Source: an uncultured Gammaproteobacteria bacterium | Lineage (GTDB): Bacteria > Patescibacteriota > Microgenomatia > Levybacterales > GWA1-39-11 | Reading direction: 5' to 3' | DNA: 41,236 nucleotides | Assembly: GCA_964537315.1 (NCBI GenBank) | Contig: CAZIAP010000002.1 | Location: 1-41,236, forward strand | Shown: piece by piece, positions 3,377 through 41,236 of the stretch | Layout of the letters: each line of letters begins with the position of its first letter | How positions within the stretch are numbered: the first letter of the stretch is position 1 | Position numbers and translations under genes: made by a program | Notes under the pieces: generated by a model | What the model was told of the DNA's origin: nothing | Seen by the model: the letters and a program-made list of their open reading frames with translations, nothing else | The model's database searches: none

Positions 3377-3409
3377 TGTATGAAAGTATAGGTTGCTCAT
3401 TGTTTAACA

Positions 3410-3590
3410 GGCGTGTAGTCCCGACGTTACGTCGGGAAACGAGGAGAAGGGTCCGAAGTAACATCGGACAATCGGACGTCCGAAGTAACATCGGACAGTA
3501 TTTGCGGAAACCTTCAGGGTGTAGTACCATCCTAAAATATTCTGACAAAGCAAAATCGCAAGGTTTTGAATAAAACAGTATATGCGTACT
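3410..3590 (+). ncRNA. glmS ribozyme/riboswitch, variant with two hairpin insertions
   Basis: Upstream of glmS. P1 3419-3437; ACGAGG 3439-3444; P2 GAAGG/CCTTC; ATCG 3471-3474; GCGG 3504-3507; P3 AGGGTG/CATCCT; P3.1 AGTAC/GTACT(3586-3590); GACAAAG; P4.1 CAAAATC-GCAA-GGTTTTG with a GNRA loop. Confidence 0.85.
3451..3497 (+). repeat. Two identical palindromic 20-mers GTCCGAAGTAACATCGGACA (3451-3470 and 3478-3497)
   Basis: Exact direct repeat with a 27-bp period; each copy folds as GTCCGA-7-TCGGAC. Confidence 0.95.
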
Positions 3591-3734
3591 CTCCTATACT
3601 TCTTAAGTTTTTATTCGTTGAGCATTATAGTTTAAGACGTTCTAAGGGTTTAGAACAGGCGGCGAACGTGACTACTCACGAATCGTGGATCTTTACTGTA
3701 ACCGTTTAACTTATATTTACCAATTAAATCTAAT

Positions 3735-33123: not shown

Positions 33124-34896
33124 ATGAACGATACGGATAAGATAAAACAAAAAATTGATATTGTAGATTTTATCGGTCGATTCGTGGATCTAAATAGAGC
33201 AGGCAGAAACTCCAAAGGACTGTGTCCGTTTCATAGTGAAAAATCCCCGTCATTTATGGTTTCAGGAGAAAGACAAATATGGCATTGTTTTGGCTGTCAA
33301 AAAGGAGGAGATATTTTTTCTTTTCTCATGGAATATGAAAAAATTGAGTTTGCTGAAAGCCTTAAAATACTGGCAAAAGAAGCTGGCGTTACTATAACTC
33401 AACCAATTTACCGCACTGAATCAGAACAAAAAAAGGAACTTCTATACGCTATTAACTCTGCAGCCGCCCAGTTTTATAATTATCTGCTCACCCAGCACGC
33501 TGTTGGCAAAAATGCACTTAAATACTTGACTGAAGACCGAGGAATTCCTTCAGGGTTAGTTGACAAGTTCCAGTTAGGGTACGCTCCTAATAAAACGACC
33601 GCACTAACTGAATATCTCGTAAAGAAACGCCAATATAAGCTAGAGGATATTCAAGCAGCTGGTCTTACGTCTGCAGGTAGAGGTAGACTATCAGATTTTT
33701 TTACCAACCGTGTCATTTTTCCGATTCATGACTTACGAGGAAATATCATCGCTTTTTCAGGAAGGGCTCTCGATAATGAGACAACGCCTAAATATATTAA
33801 TACCCGTGAGACGCTAATCTACAAAAAGAGTTCCTCATTGTTCGGAATATTTTTTGCAAAAGACGCAATGAGAAAAGAAAACAAGGTTTTAGTTGTTGAA
33901 GGAGAGTTTGATGTCATCAGCAGTATGAAAGAAGGAATATCTCATGCAGTCGCCCTAAAAGGCACCGCACTAACAGAAGAACAAATTAAGCTGCTTAAAA
34001 GATATGTTGCAAAAGTACTCTTCTGCTTCGATTCAGACGTGGCAGGGACAACTGCCCAGAAACGTTCTATCGCATTACTTGAAAAAGAAGGGCTGTCTGC
34101 TGCGGTAATAGTCCCTCCTGAAGGTAAAGATCCTGATGAGCTATTACGAGAAAACCCAACACTGTTTAAAAAAGCCCTTAAAAATGAAGTAAATGTTTAT
34201 GACTTTCTTATTGATTCTGCAGTAAAAGTGGTAGAAGTACAAACACCCGAAGGTAAAAGAAAGGTGCTTGATGAGACTCTGCCAATAATTTCTCAGATTG
34301 ATAACGAAGTTATCAAAGAACACTACTTAAAAAAACTGGCTCAAGCACTTGATACTTCTTATGAGTCAGTTCTGAGACAGAGTAATAAGAGTATCGATAA
34401 ACCCAAAATTATTCCAGTTAGTGTTAAAAGAGAGTCTAAAACCAGAGAAGAAATAACTGAGACATACTTTTTGTCTTTGGTTCTTCAGGCAAAAAACCCT
34501 TCTGACGAGATCTCCAGAATCAGCCCTATTTTAAATGAGATTGAACTTAGTACTCCATCTTTACAAAAACTTTGGAGTGAGATGCTTAATTTTTCTAAAA
34601 ACTCGACTTTTTCCCTAGATGAGTTTGCCAAACAAGTTCCGTCAGAACTTCTTGAAGCTTTTGACACCTGTTGCTTGTCACCCATACCTGAGTTTGAAGA
34701 CGCACAAACATTTGAGAAAGAACTTAGAAAAGTTGCTGTCGACACTGCAACTCTTGCAGTTCGCCATAAAATAAAAGCAGTAACACAGCGACTGCAGGAG
34801 TTGGAAAAAAATCCAAATGATGATACAATTGCATCACTGCAGACAGAATTTAGTAAATATACTCAACGTCTCGCGGCAATTAAACGAGCCTCTTGA
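33124..34896 (+). CDS. dnaG: DNA primase
   Basis: CPFHSEK zinc finger, PKYIN, VEGEFD, FDSD and KDPDE motifs. Confidence 0.97.
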
Positions 34897-34928
34897 ATAG
34901 GCTTGTAGTTTTTTGTTACAATAGAGCG

Positions 34929-36020
34929 ATGCCGCAATCTCAACCTGTTAAAAATTCCAAGATAGAAGAACTGCTAGCAACAGCTAAAAAGCGAGGATAT
35001 ATATCCCAAGACGAAATCCTTGCTGCGTTCCCACAACCCGAAAACCACTTAGTAGAGCTTGATAGTCTGTACGACCAACTAATAAAAAAAGAAATCGATA
35101 TTTTCGAAACTGTTGAAGAAGAAAAAGATGCTCAAAAATCGATGGATGACCTCGAAAAGGAGCTTGAAGCACTTAACATCATCCAGGGAGGAGCAGTTAC
35201 AGATCCGGTTCGTATGTATCTCAAGGAAATCGGACGAATCCCACTTTTAACTTTTGACCAAGAGGTAGATCTTGCAAAACGCTTAGAAGCAGGCGATATG
35301 TCAGCTCGAAAAAAACTGGTTGAATCAAACCTTCGTTTAGTAGTTTCAATTGCGAAAAAATACGTTGGACGTGGTATGGGGCTTCTTGATCTTATTCAGG
35401 AAGGAAATCAAGGACTAATTCGCGCAGTAGAGAAGTATGACTGGAAAAAAGGTTTTAAATTTTCAACCTATGCTACCTGGTGGATAAGGCAAGCAATTAC
35501 TCGTGCTATTGCCGATCAAGCAAGAACTATCCGAATTCCAGTTCATATGGTAGAGAATATCAATAGGTTTATGAGAGTACAAAGAAAATTAATGCAAGAA
35601 CTCGGACGCCAACCAACACCTGAAGAAATTTCAGAGGTTCTAGAAATAGATCCAGATAAAGCTCGTGAGATTATTAAAATCTCTCAGCAACCAACTAGTC
35701 TTGATACACCTGTAGGAGACGAGGAAGATTCGTATCTTGGTGACTTTATCTATGATGTTACTGCTCCGACTCTCTTTGATACTGCTTCTCGCGGTTTACT
35801 AAAAGAACAATTAAACTCAGTACTAGGAACCCTTTCTGACAGAGAACGACGAGTCATTGAAGAAAGATTTGGATTAAGAGATGGAAAACCAAAAACACTT
35901 GAAGAAGTGGGTCGTATGTTTGCTGTTACTCGTGAGCGCATTAGACAAATTGAAGCCAAAGCTCTACGCAAGCTTCGTCACCCGTCTCGAGGGAATAAGC
36001 TCAAAGACTACCTCGAATAA
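34929..36020 (+). CDS. rpoD: Primary sigma factor RpoD/SigA
   Basis: [36 protein letters not shown] and [14 protein letters not shown]. Start at 34929 is 6 nt after TGT-TACAAT. Confidence 0.97.
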
Positions 36021-36029
36021 AGCCTAAGC

Positions 36030-36058
36030 TTGCCAGCAATGTTTTCTCGTAATATAAT
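36030..36058 (+). promoter_or_regulatory. sigma70 promoter of the second sigma gene
   Basis: TTGCCA(36030-36035)-17-TATAAT(36053-36058)-6-ATG. Confidence 0.75.
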
Positions 36059-36064
36059 CCATGC

Positions 36065-37129
36065 ATGGAGCGATATCGCGAAAATAACTTTCTCCCTAAT
36101 GAAGAAGATGCAGAGCCTTTTATTCCTCAGATTGAGGCTAATAATAGCTTACCTCTGACTGAAGATGAAATTTCTGCAGTAATGTTACGTTCAAAATATC
36201 TTATCGATAAAATACCTGTTTATGAAATTTCTGATTCCATGTTGGAGGATTCAGCAAGTTTATCAATATATACTCCGTCTTTGACTTTTTCTAAAAATGA
36301 TGAACACATGGCTACAAGAGCGTATAAACGATTGAAAGTAAATCTAAATATCGCTGAAGAGAATAATGACGTTGAGACATATCAAAGTCTTGAAGACAAC
36401 TTACAGACAGTCAGAGAGTTGATTATAAAGAATAATTTGAGATTGGTAGTCTCAATTGCGAAAAAATACCCTCGCAGAAACACCTCTTTACCAGATCTCA
36501 TCCAAGAGGGAAATATTGGATTAATGAGAGCTGTTGAAGATTTTGACCCTGAGCTTGGATACAGATTTTCTACTTACGCAGTGTGGTGGATCAGACAATT
36601 TCTTGGGAGGCACTTAGGAAATTCTTCCAGCACTATTCGTCTGCCTATACACATGCATGAAAAGGTCAGAAAATTAAAGCGTACAATCGACGCGATCGAA
36701 CTTGAACATGGACACGCTACGAGTGAATTGATTTCAGATCATACTGGACTTTCTGTTGAACAAATAAATATCATCTTGGAGGCAAAAAATTCATTATCAC
36801 CAGCCAGTCTTGACAGATCTATACAAAGTGAAAATGGTAATCATCCGCTAAAAGATATTATTACTGGAGACTTAGGCACAGACTCCACAGAAGAAGTGGA
36901 TAAAAGAATTAATGGATTACAACTACTTAAATATCTAGAAAATTCCTCACTAACCGAGCAGGAACTGTCGGTTATTCGATATCGACATGGTCTCGGAGAA
37001 GGGGAGCCTATGACTTACGCTATGATTGGTGATGCAATGGGTTTATCACGCGAGCGTATTAGACAAATAGAGTCGAAAGCTATGCGTAAACTTGAAAAAG
37101 ATCCTGTAATCAAATCTTTTCGCTCATGA
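36065..37129 (+). CDS. Second RpoD-like sigma-70 factor
   Basis: [33 protein letters not shown] and [17 protein letters not shown] motifs; divergent N-terminus. Confidence 0.92.
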   Translation: MERYRENNFLPNEEDAEPFIPQIEANNSLPLTEDEISAVMLRSKYLIDKIPVYEISDSMLEDSASLSIYTPSLTFSKNDEHMATRAYKRLKVNLNIAEENNDVETYQSLEDNLQTVRELIIKNNLRLVVSIAKKYPRRNTSLPDLIQEGNIGLMRAVEDFDPELGYRFSTYAVWWIRQFLGRHLGNSSSTIRLPIHMHEKVRKLKRTIDAIELEHGHATSELISDHTGLSVEQINIILEAKNSLSPASLDRSIQSENGNHPLKDIITGDLGTDSTEEVDKRINGLQLLKYLENSSLTEQELSVIRYRHGLGEGEPMTYAMIGDAMGLSRERIRQIESKAMRKLEKDPVIKSFRS

Positions 37130-37177: not shown

Positions 37178-37480
37178 TCCGCGATAGCTCAATGGTAGAG
37201 CAGGTCGCTGTAGCACTTTTTTTGCAGCCTTCCGAAGCAATTCGGAAAGGAAAAATGGGGTGAATTCAGGGAAGTCCTGAAATGGATAATCCTGAGCCGA
37301 GCTTGATGAATGGTATCAAAGTAATCAAGAAGGTGCAGAGACTAGAAGTGAGGAACCAATCCAATAAGCTTCATTAGCGCCCCACATCCTAAATTAGGAT
37401 GATGAGATAGTCCACGCTTTCTGGTAACAGGGAGATAAAGTGTAACGACAAGGTTCTAGGTTCGAATCCTAGTCGCGGAG
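37178..37480 (+). tRNA. tRNA-Asn(GTT) split by a group I intron; exons 37178-37211 and 37443-37480
   Basis: Joined exons give TCCGCGA/TCGCGGA-G acceptor stem, GGTCG-CT[GTT]AA-CGACA anticodon arm and a GGTTCGAATCC T-arm. Confidence 0.92.
37212..37442 (+). ncRNA. Group I self-splicing intron (IC3-like), 231 nt, no homing endonuclease
   Basis: IGS GCAGC (37224-37228) pairs with exon GCTGT with a U.G at the splice site. P3 GGGGTG/CGCCCC; P4 TTCAGG/CCTGAG; R GTGCAGAGACTAG; S GAGATAGTCC; P7 GACTA/TAGTC; terminal G at 37442. Confidence 0.92.
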
Positions 37481-39043
37481 CCCATTAGTCGTTAATATAC
37501 CCAATTTGGCCTTGTTTAGAACATCTATAACTGGCTGATATTGGGTATCAACGACTTTTTTGTTTTCTATTAGGATTTTCTTGAAAAAGAAGCTCAAATA
37601 GGCACGTTTAGCATTGGTATTTGCTTCTTTATAGGTTGTGATAATGTCCTTCGTTAGTGAAATCACTTCCTCTACAATTTTGACATCAATTGTGCGTATT
37701 TTGTTCAATTCTGTAAGTTCTTTTTGAATATCTAGCAAATCGGATTCTATTTTGGAATTTATCGCCATATATCTATCTCGCTTTATAGATCCTGCTAGCA
37801 ACTCTTCCTCTAATCGCTCCTGCTTTATTTCTAGGGCGTCTCTGCGGTTGTAAGCGGCCTTTTTAGCTAGTTTGCTTCTGGTAGTGGTATCTTCATATAC
37901 TTTCTGCACATTTCTCTTAACTGCGTCTATAAACTCCTGACTAAATTCTAGCTTTTCAACTTCTTTTTCAATTTTCTTCTCTAGTGTTTCAATTTCTACA
38001 TATTTGGACTTACATTTGCCAACTCTACCCACACCTGCACAATGGTAGTAGCCAATTCTGCCACCTCTATGCTTAAACTTCTTTTCGTTTACATGCCATT
38101 CTGCTGTATACCTACGGCCACACATATTACAAAAAATTACACCACGTAAAAGGAAGTTGTGTGTGCGTCGTCTAGTTCCATATTCACCACGTCTTGAAAG
38201 GTAATATTGGACTTGTTCAAACGTTTTTTTATCGATTAGTGGCTCATGTTTTCCCATTCCCTCCATACCTCCATATCTCATCCATCCCCAATAAAATGGG
38301 TTTTTAAGTATGTTATGCATCAAAGAATAGGCTATCGGCCTACCTGTTTTTCCTCTAACACCATTGCTGTGTAAATATTCTCTGATTGAATAAATGGTGT
38401 GTTGTTGTGTGGCATACATTTTGAATGCTTGCGTTATAAAAGGGGCTGTCTGTGGATCGGGTACGATTATTCTTCTGTCATATGATCCAATCGGATTTTT
38501 ATTGGCTACGTTCATGTATCCTACTATGGCTACTGATGGATAATATCCTGCTTTGAACTTTTCTGCTGCTGTTTGCTTTACCTTATAGCTGGTTAGTCGT
38601 GGCTGTATGCTATGAACAACCGCAATCATCTCATCCATCACATCAGATAGTGGATTGTCATCAATATTAACAGCACCAGTTAGAGGAACAATAGACGTGT
38701 TGTGTTTTTTGAGGGTTTGCTTAATAAACAAATATTCGTAGGTGTTTCTAGCAACCCTAGAACTGTCCTGCACAACCACATAATCAATATCACCTTTGGT
38801 ACATCTGGCTAGTATTGCTTGAAACGCTATTCGCTTATCTAATGAAGTTCCACTAATCCCACCATCAACAAATATATCTTCTGCTAGCTCACCGCCTAGT
38901 TCTTCAACCTTGGATAGTATTTTCGTTTTTTGAACATCTAGACTTAGGCCGTTATCACGCTGGTTTGCAGTACTGACACGTACATAGCCGAGGCATTTGG
39001 AGATTTTGTTATTCTGTCGTACATCGTCAATTTTCATTTTCAT
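37469..39043 (-). CDS. Large serine recombinase (resolvase + recombinase + Zn-ribbon + coiled coil)
   Basis: YVRVST catalytic Ser motif, DSSRVAR, LKNPFYWG, HEPLI, CNMCG and YYHC..C motifs. Confidence 0.95.
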   Translation of the reverse strand: MKMKIDDVRQNNKISKCLGYVRVSTANQRDNGLSLDVQKTKILSKVEELGGELAEDIFVDGGISGTSLDKRIAFQAILARCTKGDIDYVVVQDSSRVARNTYEYLFIKQTLKKHNTSIVPLTGAVNIDDNPLSDVMDEMIAVVHSIQPRLTSYKVKQTAAEKFKAGYYPSVAIVGYMNVANKNPIGSYDRRIIVPDPQTAPFITQAFKMYATQQHTIYSIREYLHSNGVRGKTGRPIAYSLMHNILKNPFYWGWMRYGGMEGMGKHEPLIDKKTFEQVQYYLSRRGEYGTRRRTHNFLLRGVIFCNMCGRRYTAEWHVNEKKFKHRGGRIGYYHCAGVGRVGKCKSKYVEIETLEKKIEKEVEKLEFSQEFIDAVKRNVQKVYEDTTTRSKLAKKAAYNRRDALEIKQERLEEELLAGSIKRDRYMAINSKIESDLLDIQKELTELNKIRTIDVKIVEEVISLTKDIITTYKEANTNAKRAYLSFFFKKILIENKKVVDTQYQPVIDVLNKAKLGILTTNGLRD

Positions 39044-39077: not shown

Positions 39078-39251
39078 TCAGTCTGTAGTCAGCTTATGAA
39101 ATATTTTGGCCGTCTGTAAGCCTTCTTTATCTTTTGCTAACAATATTTCCATCATCATCTCAACCCATCGTTCTGCCAATTTATCAATGTCTGGCTCGGG
39201 GGCATCTTTGTACTTCCTATTCTTAGATGGTGTGTTATGGATCTTTGTCAT
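39078..39251 (-). CDS. Small 57-aa hypothetical protein upstream of the recombinase (not in ORF track)
   Basis: Manual translation MTKIHNTPSKNRKYKDAPEPDIDKLAERWVEMMMEILLAKDKEGLQTAKIFHKLTTD; stop lies 34 nt before the recombinase start. Confidence 0.55.
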   Translation of the reverse strand: MTKIHNTPSKNRKYKDAPEPDIDKLAERWVEMMMEILLAKDKEGLQTAKIFHKLTTD

Positions 39252-39464
39252 GTTAGTTACTGCTCGGGTTAATATCCCTATTTACAAAATTTAGATTGAT
39301 CTCAAATGAATATATGCGGGGTTGTAGACACAAATAATGTTGACTCTCAATAGTCTTTCCGCTCTGCCTTGCAAACTCTATGAAAGTCTTTGAAAATTTA
39401 TTGAACGTCGAAATTAAAGAGGGAAGATAATATAACCAACTAACAACAACTAACCATGCACCAT

Positions 39465-39553
39465 ATAGTAACTTTATATAGATACTTACCCTTAATAGGG
39501 ACAAAATAGTTACTTTATATAGTCCATATACAATATAGTTATATATAGTTACT
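39465..39553. repeat. AT-rich imperfect direct repeats (ATAGTWACTTTATATAG-like)
   Basis: Copies at 39465-39481 and 39506-39522 differ at one base; shorter variants at 39535-39548 and 39545-39553. Confidence 0.6.
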
Positions 39554-39571
39554 ATTGTTGAAATTGTTAGT

Positions 39572-39961
39572 TTAGAAAGGAATATCATCGGGATTTGCCT
39601 CCTCTGCAATATTTTCTGACTCATTCTTTTCCGCTTCTTTCATACCTTCTTGGCCTTCTTTTTTGCTTCGTGCCATGCAAAAGGCGTCATAAATCATTTC
39701 GTGAATCAATTCCCATGTGCCTCTGTCATTAATGAAAACTATTTCTTTCCACTTACCCCAAATATTGATGCTCGGCCCTTGTATCCACAGTTGTTCTCCA
39801 AATCTTTCGTGAGATTTTTTTGACTTCATTACACGCCAACCATGTATCTCGATCACATCAAAGAAAATAACTGTGGCTTGGCACAGCATTTTGTCGGAAT
39901 CTTTTAGTTTTATCCGAACTTGAACATTGTCTCTACTTATGTAACTCATTCTCATATTCAT
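39572..39961 (-). CDS. SpoVG-like small protein ending in an SSB-type acidic tail (DDIPF)
   Basis: VRIKL..CQATVIFFDVIEIHGWRV beta-rich SpoVG-like pattern; C-terminus EEANPDDIPF. Start could be 39961, 39955 or 39949. Confidence 0.6.
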   Translation of the reverse strand: MNMRMSYISRDNVQVRIKLKDSDKMLCQATVIFFDVIEIHGWRVMKSKKSHERFGEQLWIQGPSINIWGKWKEIVFINDRGTWELIHEMIYDAFCMARSKKEGQEGMKEAEKNESENIAEEANPDDIPF

Positions 39962-39980
39962 TAAAAAAGACAACTATTAT

Positions 39981-40229
39981 TTAGCTGCCTAGATATAAAA
40001 GATGTTTCAGTTGTTTTAGGGATGCTTGAAATCTAGTAGGCTCAACCTTTGCTTCCATTCGAGAAAAAGTTGATACATGTTTCAAACAAGTGTTGGAGCT
40101 AGGAAAAAGGAAGGTGCCACGATTGTTAGAATCTTTGTTTATACCGCTTAAATCAACACCTGCTGTTATTAGATATGCGGCAAGTCCGATATCAGTTGTT
40201 TTGAAGAATTTATCATCCTGCATTTTCAT
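39981..40229 (-). CDS. DUF5659-like small protein
   Basis: F.TTDIGLAAYL..G..L..I.K....RGTFLF pattern, recognised from mobile elements. Confidence 0.6.
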   Translation of the reverse strand: MKMQDDKFFKTTDIGLAAYLITAGVDLSGINKDSNNRGTFLFPSSNTCLKHVSTFSRMEAKVEPTRFQASLKQLKHLLYLGS

Positions 40230-40295
40230 ATTGAATACATTTTCGCTGAAATGCAGGGCGAACTTAATGAAAGTTACAAACTCGTAAAATGCAGG

Positions 40296-41093
40296 TTAGA
40301 TTGAAAGAAGTTTTTTGTAGTAGGCCACACCTTTGAGAACTCGATTATCATCAGAGCCAGAATCAGAGTTTTCAATGTTTGGATTATCCATCCACTCAGT
40401 TGATATTTGCACGTATGTTTTTCCTTCTAAATGTTTCCAGTACCACTCACGATAGGCTCGAATTTTATTTGCCTTATCAACTCTTGGTTTGTAATAGCTA
40501 AGTTTTTCATTAGCTGAAAATAGTTTTCTGGCACGACGTACCTGTTCTTTTATTTGTATATCTGTAGATGTGGGTGAAACTAGAATAGCTACTTGAGGGA
40601 GTTGGAAGTGGCCAGTTGTGGAATAAAGCGTGTCTTGTTCAACGATAGTCGTTGATGTCGTATCAAATAAATCTCCATCAACTGCACCGCACAAAATAGC
40701 TTGTTTTATTAGTTCTGCAAAGTAGGGTGGCCGATGAAACAAATAGCTCAGAATAGCAGCGTCTGTATCTAATCGTTGATTCATAGTCATGTCCGCATCT
40801 TCTATTTCTTCATACCAGACTACGTTTTTATTTGCATATTCGATCAGTTCTTTTGCATTACCATATGTTGAAAAATCAAACTTGGATTCTTTACTATTAA
40901 AAAATTCATCCATCAACTGCTCGTAATCTTCCAAATCACACACCTTAGTGATGTTGTATTTCTTTCTTATCTTGGGTAAATATTCTAAAAACTCTGGCTT
41001 ATCAAATAGAATTGCTAGCTCTAAGAAGTTTCTGTCATTTTTTGTTTGAATACCTACTTTTAGTTTTGATAGATCCTCATACTTCATTTTCAT
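40296..41093 (-). CDS. Hypothetical protein with possible C-terminal HTH
   Basis: Start moved to MKMKYEDL (8 nt after TAGAAT); C-terminal REWYWKHLEGKTYVQIS..RVLKGV helix pattern. Confidence 0.6.
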   Translation of the reverse strand: MKMKYEDLSKLKVGIQTKNDRNFLELAILFDKPEFLEYLPKIRKKYNITKVCDLEDYEQLMDEFFNSKESKFDFSTYGNAKELIEYANKNVVWYEEIEDADMTMNQRLDTDAAILSYLFHRPPYFAELIKQAILCGAVDGDLFDTTSTTIVEQDTLYSTTGHFQLPQVAILVSPTSTDIQIKEQVRRARKLFSANEKLSYYKPRVDKANKIRAYREWYWKHLEGKTYVQISTEWMDNPNIENSDSGSDDNRVLKGVAYYKKLLSI

Positions 41094-41236
41094 ATATTTG
41101 TATTCTACTAAAAACGAATTGTTTGGCCTATAAGTTAAGCAAATTATGATGAAATAAAGTAAAATATCGTCATGGACACACAAACCTTACTTTCACAGGC
41201 ATCACAAGCACTTGTAAATTTAAATGGAAACGTCAT

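Follow-up and report, generated by a model that had tools for sequence, protein, structure and literature searches.

Integration into tRNA genes is regarded, as a working rule, as a trait of tyrosine integrases only (PMC4383910), and the suicidal integrases, which carry the attachment site attP inside the integrase gene, are tyrosine recombinases described as "so far restricted to archaea" (PMC7253208). The original prediction for the DNA analysed here, made from its sequence, had named both features as tyrosine-integrase traits, in agreement with these two papers. In this work, a locus apparently combining them in a large serine recombinase (LSR) is described for a Microgenomates-type bacterium of the candidate phyla radiation (CPR). 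The analysed stretch, called the window, comprises bases 1-41,236 of the 173-kb contig C2 from a genome (G000) of 1.1 Mb with a GC content of about 37%. An LSR gene near its end runs antisense into the 3' end of a tRNA-Asn gene and appears to belong to an integrative element. The window ends inside this element; the numbering is identical for window and contig, and coordinates above 41236 refer to contig C2 beyond the window.

The closest described serine systems are those of phiC31, Bxb1, A118/LI, TP901-1 and SPbeta, whose integrases have the same domain order (resolvase, recombinase, and zinc ribbon with a long coiled-coil). In the phiC31-type systems, too, the att sites are short, their arms are imperfectly inverted around a common central dinucleotide, and the element ends lack long repeats. 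However, their attP is intergenic and their targets are protein-coding or intergenic DNA (PMC4383910), whereas here attP would lie in the open reading frame (ORF) of the integrase, the 3' end of a tRNA gene serves as attB, and an extra C-terminal helix follows the crossover. A large LSR survey makes no mention of tRNA (PMC10083194), and a preprint on Prochlorococcus tycheposons reports an LSR in 27 of 937 elements, the integration sites not being stated. The literature searched, which was incomplete, contained no account of a serine integrase that uses a tRNA as attB or carries attP in its ORF.

The closest systems in design are SSV1, pTN3 and pT26-2 (PMC7253208), in which attP is also located in the integrase ORF, the target is also a tRNA gene, and the N- and C-terminal parts also come to lie at opposite ends of the element. 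As in the present family, tandem integration restores an intact SSV-type gene, and N and C parts of mixed origin are combined. The SSV-type enzymes are archaeal tyrosine recombinases whose genes are left as two inactive stumps, whereas the enzyme described here is a serine recombinase of CPR bacteria that loses only its last 41 residues or so, the catalytic and DNA-binding domains staying together. By analogy, the LSR is predicted to work like these suicidal integrases while standing outside their family, its domains being those of serine recombinases only. Islander-type islands of tyrosine integrases resemble the locus in the restored tRNA 3' end, the adjoining integrase gene and the repeated use of one tRNA. 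However, those islands are marked by a direct repeat of tens of nucleotides, made of displaced tRNA sequence, whereas only 4 nt are shared here, which places the element outside the Islander definition. Another tyrosine integrase, IntP/IntX of myxophage Mx8, has attP in the 3' part of its gene and a C-terminus that is altered by integration, as here.

The split integrase gene and its attachment sites

The target gene was not called as a tRNA by ARAGORN, because a group I intron interrupts it. An intron in the target tRNA had been predicted, and it was confirmed by a match to RF00028 at 100 bits (the match itself covers about 37202-37434), which includes the group I catalytic core, and by the exons, which after splicing fold into the canonical cloverleaf of tRNA-Asn(GTT). 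No second tRNA-Asn was found in the low-GC contigs of the genome. Six short contigs (C9-C14) have a GC content of 57-70%, against 37-40% in the remainder of the genome, and are probably contamination of the bin. The intron is present in the tRNA-Asn of some related genomes (L005, L007, L061, L062) and absent from others (L004, L006, L009). LSR elements occupy intron-bearing and intron-less genes alike, and therefore intron and LSR element are independent mobile elements.

The LSR has an N-terminal catalytic domain (PF00239 Resolvase, E=4e-22, residues 18-166) together with the Recombinase (PF07508, E=3e-17) and Zn_ribbon_recom (PF13408, E=7e-9) domains, and matches phrog_95 "integrase" at 2.9e-85. 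Matches in the PDB sequence search were confined to catalytic domains; for example, the homologue L039 matched the catalytic domain of the TP901-1 integrase. The AlphaFold model of L039 shows long paired helices at residues 368-448, a coiled-coil inserted in the zinc-ribbon domain. All sequence-level features thus place the protein among the large serine integrases, and catalysis is predicted.

It had been claimed that the end of the gene (GLRD-stop) is antisense to tRNA-Asn positions 62-73 with its stop in the T-stem, and the coordinates bear this out. The protein ends with ...TTNGLRD. Its stop codon TAG is the complement of 37469-37471, antisense to C62-T63-A64 in the 3' strand of the T-stem; the codons for D, R and L are antisense to tRNA positions 65-73, and the codon for G lies 3 nt outside the tRNA. 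R523, D524 and the stop (37469-37477) are accordingly written in host tRNA sequence. This overlap is, as judged from comparative evidence, not a matter of chance, because dozens of homologues, and most of the other LSR genes in related genomes, show the identical geometry.

For comparison, two sister elements were available, in G003 (congeneric, as is G001) and in G061, with LSRs 80% and 73% identical to the one in G000. The far junction, attR, was searched for by scanning element interiors for an inverted copy of a motif from the LSR 3' end, followed by the last tRNA bases. In attL, the B arm consists of the tRNA T-arm and the acceptor strand through G70, the shared core GAGC is at 37478-37481, and the P' arm, which bears the 10-nt motif CGTTAATATA at 37490-37499, is part of the LSR 3' end. 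The scan recovered an attR with TATATTAACG, a perfect inverted copy of CGTTAATATA, and the two motifs sit 11 and 10 nt from G71-A72. Near-identical copies of attR occur at the matching place in the G003 and G061 elements, and sequence conservation between the three reaches exactly to ...CTCGAGC. Past the attR core there is a terminator-like hairpin, which fits the original trailer of the tRNA. The element so delimited comprises 10,412 bp (contig C2:37478-47889) at the extreme 3' end of tRNA-Asn.

Only GAGC (tRNA positions 71-74) is common to attL and attR, as expected for a serine integrase, and the sites are short, their arms are imperfectly inverted, and long direct repeats are absent. Serine integrases require merely a shared dinucleotide. 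The crossover most likely falls at G71-A72 (37478-37479), inside codon L522, as suggested by the arms and by the unsplit homologue L055, whose native attP reads TATATTAAGC, a 24-nt spacer and GCTAATATA, with the GA of ...GGAGC at its centre. Ungapped dyad-symmetry scoring of candidate attR sites was indistinguishable from background; symmetry is confined to about 10 nt of each arm, and the spacing of the arms may differ by 1 nt.

When the two element ends were joined at GAGC, the stop after GLRD was lost and the ORF continued in frame for 41 codons, yielding a protein of 563 residues. Hereafter, the integrated, truncated form of the gene is called Int(N) and the severed C-terminal codons Int(C). 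The extension runs from C2:47889 down to 47767 with its stop at 47764-47766, and the rejoined ORF ends with ...GILTTNGL followed by EDRNVNITSQFVRIFKVFEDFRFISQLKEDMDKVRPVAMAT and the stop. An in-frame TAG stands immediately upstream of Int(C) and a start codon is absent, and we infer that Int(C) is silent while the element is integrated. The in-frame extension is alike in G000, G003 and G061 (EDRNVNITSQFVRIFKVFEDFRFISQLKEDMDKVRP...), and the pairwise differences are mainly at third codon positions (11/17, 11/15 and 12/22). Homologous sequence is found at the end of contiguous, unsplit genes, such as L039 and L042 (...TIKTFEDFRLVQQIREEIEKVRP...) and P0068 (...NWLENRNTNITTELSRIIKVFEDFRLVAQIREQIENLRP...), and the same extension is carried by L055, P0074 and P0082. 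For other elements, the extension peptides were used in tblastn searches against the interiors of integrated elements, which gave minus-strand matches 8-23 kb from the tRNA. Rejoining at GAGC was in frame in at least eight other elements, from G048, G065, G066, G070, G071, G008 and G073, and the rejoined extensions have the common motif ..KxF[EQ][DN][FP]..ELRxRWxEIKKL...

The prediction had placed the crossover in the 3' end of the recombinase gene, with integration or excision altering the C-terminus, and the GAGC mapping and the 41-codon rejoining uphold it. It had also proposed to reconstruct attP and translate the C-terminus of the circular form, and this yielded 41 further conserved codons that lie 10.4 kb away when the element is integrated. 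At the level of sequence, these comparisons demonstrate an attP inside the integrase ORF, a tRNA target, and a predicted C-terminus that changes with integration.

Homologues, tandem arrays and other tRNA targets

Among 114 database homologues of at least 480 residues, all diverge right after the crossover-spanning codon (...N-G/W/R-L). In 67 of them the tail is antisense tRNA, for example RD, PR, PRVDSNHEP or RGLDSNQEPAD, each followed by a stop. Closely related Int(N) parts are coupled to unrelated C-terminal extensions in tRNA-Asn arrays, and the shuffling of N and C parts among the 114 homologues is similar to that reported for the archaeal suicidal integrases (PMC7253208). Several tRNA-Asn loci contain two or three elements or remnants together with Int(C)-like pieces (L105, L106, L111 in G066, L022/L028 in G048, L109 in G065), and direct P-core-P' junctions between neighbouring elements were found in G074 (L105) and G075 (L106). 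The unsplit genes L039, L042, L074 and L078 are separated by 30-730 nt from a tRNA-Asn with a decayed attL remnant behind it. Because of these arrays, junctions and remnants, the tRNA-Asn end can be regarded as a hot spot of serial integration.

LSR genes are numerous in a related sample of 60 CPR genomes, and the 3' flanks of 40 further LSR genes from related genomes (loci L117-L156) were examined, of which 39 could be evaluated. A tRNA gene called by ARAGORN is overlapped on the opposite strand by 24 of the 39; with two more genes whose tails are typical of intron-bearing tRNA-Asn, 26/39 run antisense into a tRNA, and a further six end within 180 nt of one. The overlapped tRNAs represent eight amino acids: Asn, Lys, Pro (three anticodons), Trp, Gln (two), Glu (two), His and Val. 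Some LSR ORFs in this set read through the entire tRNA. Distant LSRs in metagenome-assembled genomes of a Minisyncoccia and a Rickettsiales member overlap tRNA-Ser and tRNA-Gln, respectively.

LSRs with an in-ORF attP and a tRNA target seem to be widespread among CPR bacteria. One LSR family, together with most LSR genes of the 60 CPR genomes, converges on tRNA 3' ends, which contradicts the rule that tRNA targeting is confined to tyrosine integrases. The design of an attP within the integrase is also extended to bacterial serine integrases, in a milder form in which only a C-terminal helix is exchanged. Because no more than 4 nt are shared, island finders that depend on repeats would miss or misplace such elements, and therefore mobile DNA of CPR bacteria is probably under-called. 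Serine integrases are widely used as genome-engineering tools, and the family would offer a large set with a conserved, universal tRNA attB and possibly self-encoded direction control.

Proposed mechanism and competing explanations

Taken together, the evidence points to an integrative element at the 3' end of the sole tRNA-Asn gene, whose serine integrase gene would itself contain attP, some 41 codons ahead of its natural stop; we give this reading a probability of about 0.8. Integration would leave the tRNA sequence intact, the element contributing only A72-G73 and a new trailer. The integrase gene would be divided in two. Int(N) would retain every known domain and acquire an Arg-Asp-stop ending, encoded by the strand opposite the acceptor and T stems of the tRNA, and the 41 codons of Int(C) would be left at the other extremity of the element, where they lack a start codon. 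On excision, both parts would become joined again. Two isoforms may thereby exist, one for the free and one for the integrated state, and the extension would modulate their activity or direction. For example, attP x attB recombination might be favoured by the full-length enzyme, and the truncated one might allow recombination of attL x attR or keep the element locked in its site.

Several observations weigh against this reading or parts of it. The spacer of the G000 attP is 23 nt and its dyad is off by 1 nt, so that the centre is either CG or GA, of which only GA is shared with attB. In the homologues without tRNA-derived tails, the extensions are of several types unrelated to one another, even where the Int(N) parts are 88% identical (for example P0002). 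Many unsplit genes may represent hybrid junctions in tandem arrays, and the extension is perhaps not essential. In the AlphaFold model of an unsplit homologue, the body is good and the extension forms a helix after a short linker with a predicted local distance difference test (pLDDT) score below 50, so that no docking site backs a regulatory role. No recombination directionality factor was recognised in the element with PHROGs or Pfam, and excision of the G000 element would be a prediction from its sequence.

The most probable competing explanation accepts the split as real and holds it to be functionally neutral: attP would lie in a dispensable tail, with a separate factor setting the direction as in other serine integrases. 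This is quite possible, at somewhat less than even odds. It would account for tRNA-derived tails that range from one to more than 30 residues in two reading frames, for extension types that are non-homologous among close Int(N) relatives, for the retention of every Pfam domain in Int(N), and for the low model confidence of the extension. However, a dispensable tail does not sit well with purifying selection on the extension within a type and with its conservation down to about 30% Int(N) identity, and the P arm constrains the first eight extension codons, not the following 30.

A regulatory switch of activity or stability by change of the C-terminus is a plausible hypothesis. In its strongest form, the C-terminal helix would be a built-in directionality device: the full-length integrase encoded by the circle would perform attP x attB recombination, and the truncated enzyme would either perform attL x attR recombination or be inactive, without a separate factor; this is put forward tentatively, as a less likely case than the neutral split. 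In synthetic integrase-directionality factor fusions, a C-terminal appendage alters which pair of sites recombines (PMC5737554), an effect of the type suggested for the extension. That appendage is engineered and is a known directionality factor, whereas the one described here is natural, is present according to the state of the DNA, and has a hypothetical effect. The family would be a natural case in which to see how C-terminal appendages affect direction control by the coiled-coil in serine integrases. If the switch exists, the state of the DNA is written into the enzyme, and such logic may be in wide use in CPR bacteria, with serine instead of tyrosine integrases filling the tRNA-targeting role. 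The 57-residue ORF directly 5' of the LSR gene, which falls within a DNA block conserved with the G003 element, is a speculative candidate for an accessory or directionality factor.

Suicide or lock-in of the archaeal SSV type is unlikely. Int(N) would then be inactive and rescued only by the tandem integration of a second element, as in the model of PMC7253208, which the frequent arrays and attL remnants at tRNA-Asn and the decayed attL often found in front of unsplit genes would parallel. Against this, almost every integrated copy has an intact Int(N) ORF, with stops in few of about 100 matches, the Int(C) pieces are open and conserved, which is unexpected of dead pseudogenes, and the loss is limited to 41 residues outside the known domains. 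Because nearly all Int(N) ORFs are intact and the Int(C) pieces are conserved, we argue that the elements are probably still mobile, and an active truncated enzyme is favoured over strict suicide.

It is very improbable that the element is instead bounded by 13-nt direct repeats (37469-37481 and C2:47992-48004), with the same C-terminus in both states. The original prediction had called for a second copy of the tRNA 3' end at the far boundary, and one was indeed found; however, it seems to be an older relic and misplaces the boundary. The 13-mer CTAGTCGCGGAGC (tRNA positions 62-74) recurs exactly in G003, 9.1 kb downstream (L021:10989-11001), and with one mismatch (12/13) in G000, 10.5 kb downstream, this being the sole match with at most one mismatch in the 1.1-Mb genome. 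A search for exact words of at least 11 nt of the tRNA 3' end in other genomes gave nothing useful. Such a boundary would predict an unchanged C-terminus, because the repeat contains the LSR stop codon. As attR the repeat was ruled out by the conserved P arm and the in-frame extension at the nearer attR. It sits about 100 nt to the right of the true attR, after the hairpin, and the 12/13 copy in G061 lies about 470 nt past its own attR, so that the conservation among sister elements stops about 100 nt (G000, G003) to 470 nt (G061) short of it. The in-frame conserved extension, the inverted P motif and the unsplit homologues would be left unexplained, and serine integrases, for which a shared dinucleotide suffices, have no need of a 13-nt repeat. 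The 13-nt copy looks like the displaced tRNA end of an older integration by an enzyme crossing further 5' in the tRNA.

A resident chromosomal recombinase that, in a compact genome, just happens to converge on the tRNA can practically be dismissed: the base composition of the element is indistinguishable from that of the host and no capsid, terminase or conjugation genes were recognised in it (PHROGs, Pfam), yet within one genus G001 has a tRNA-Asn with no LSR element beside it and G003 has different cargo between identical ends, and the att architecture, the tandem arrays and the phage-integrase family match all speak for a mobile element.

Cargo and surroundings of the element

The features of the locus are listed in Table 1. 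On the LSR side the cargo inside the window is encoded on the minus strand up to a restriction-modification pair that straddles the window end, and a repressor gene and a further gene block follow on the contig. When IMG/VR viral contigs were scanned, solely homologues of about 23% identity without a tRNA were obtained, and no free phage form was found among them.

Table 1 Features of the tRNA-Asn locus and the integrated element (contig C2 numbering)
Feature	Position	Strand	Evidence or remark
tRNA-Asn(GTT) exon 1, positions 1-35	37178-37211	+	Boundaries from sequence; spliced fold
Group I intron, between anticodon positions 35 and 36	37212-37442	+	Rfam RF00028, 100.4 bits, E=5e-25
tRNA-Asn exon 2, positions 36-73, CCA not encoded	37443-37480	+	Sequence; spliced fold
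attL (putative)	37453-37506		Comparison with attR and with native attP of homologues
Int(N), truncated LSR gene, 524 aa	37469-39043	-	ORF; Pfam; phrog_95
57-aa ORF directly 5' of LSR, same orientation	39078-39251	-	No informative family match
Cargo to window end	39253-41236		123-aa, SpoVG-like 133-aa, DUF5659 and 295-aa ORFs (all minus), then start of restriction enzyme gene (plus)
SpoVG-like 133-aa ORF	39572-39973	-	Ends ...DDIPF, SSB-tail-like motif
Type II restriction enzyme	41172-42062	+	PADLOC 2e-54; starts 65 nt before window end
N6/N4 DNA methyltransferase	42036-43040	-	Convergent and overlapping with restriction enzyme gene
LexA-like S24 repressor	43037-43633	-	Divergent from DUF2188 gene
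DUF2188 gene	43717-43947	+	
Four-gene block	43991-47614		Contig C2
Int(C), severed last 41 LSR codons (predicted)	47764-47889	-	Contig C2; reconstruction
attR P arm and core (putative), TATATTAACGTTACGATCCTCGAGC	47869-47893		Contig C2, beyond window; inverted-motif search

Outside the element, a tRNA truncated by the window start was detected at 1-54 on the minus strand (Rfam, 30 bits), and a glmS ribozyme with long insertions is located at 3399-3593 on the plus strand, 5' of glmS. Immediately 5' of tRNA-Asn are two tandem sigma-70 family genes (34893-37129, plus strand), of which one is an RpoD-like full gene (375 aa) and the other a 354-aa paralogue without region 1.

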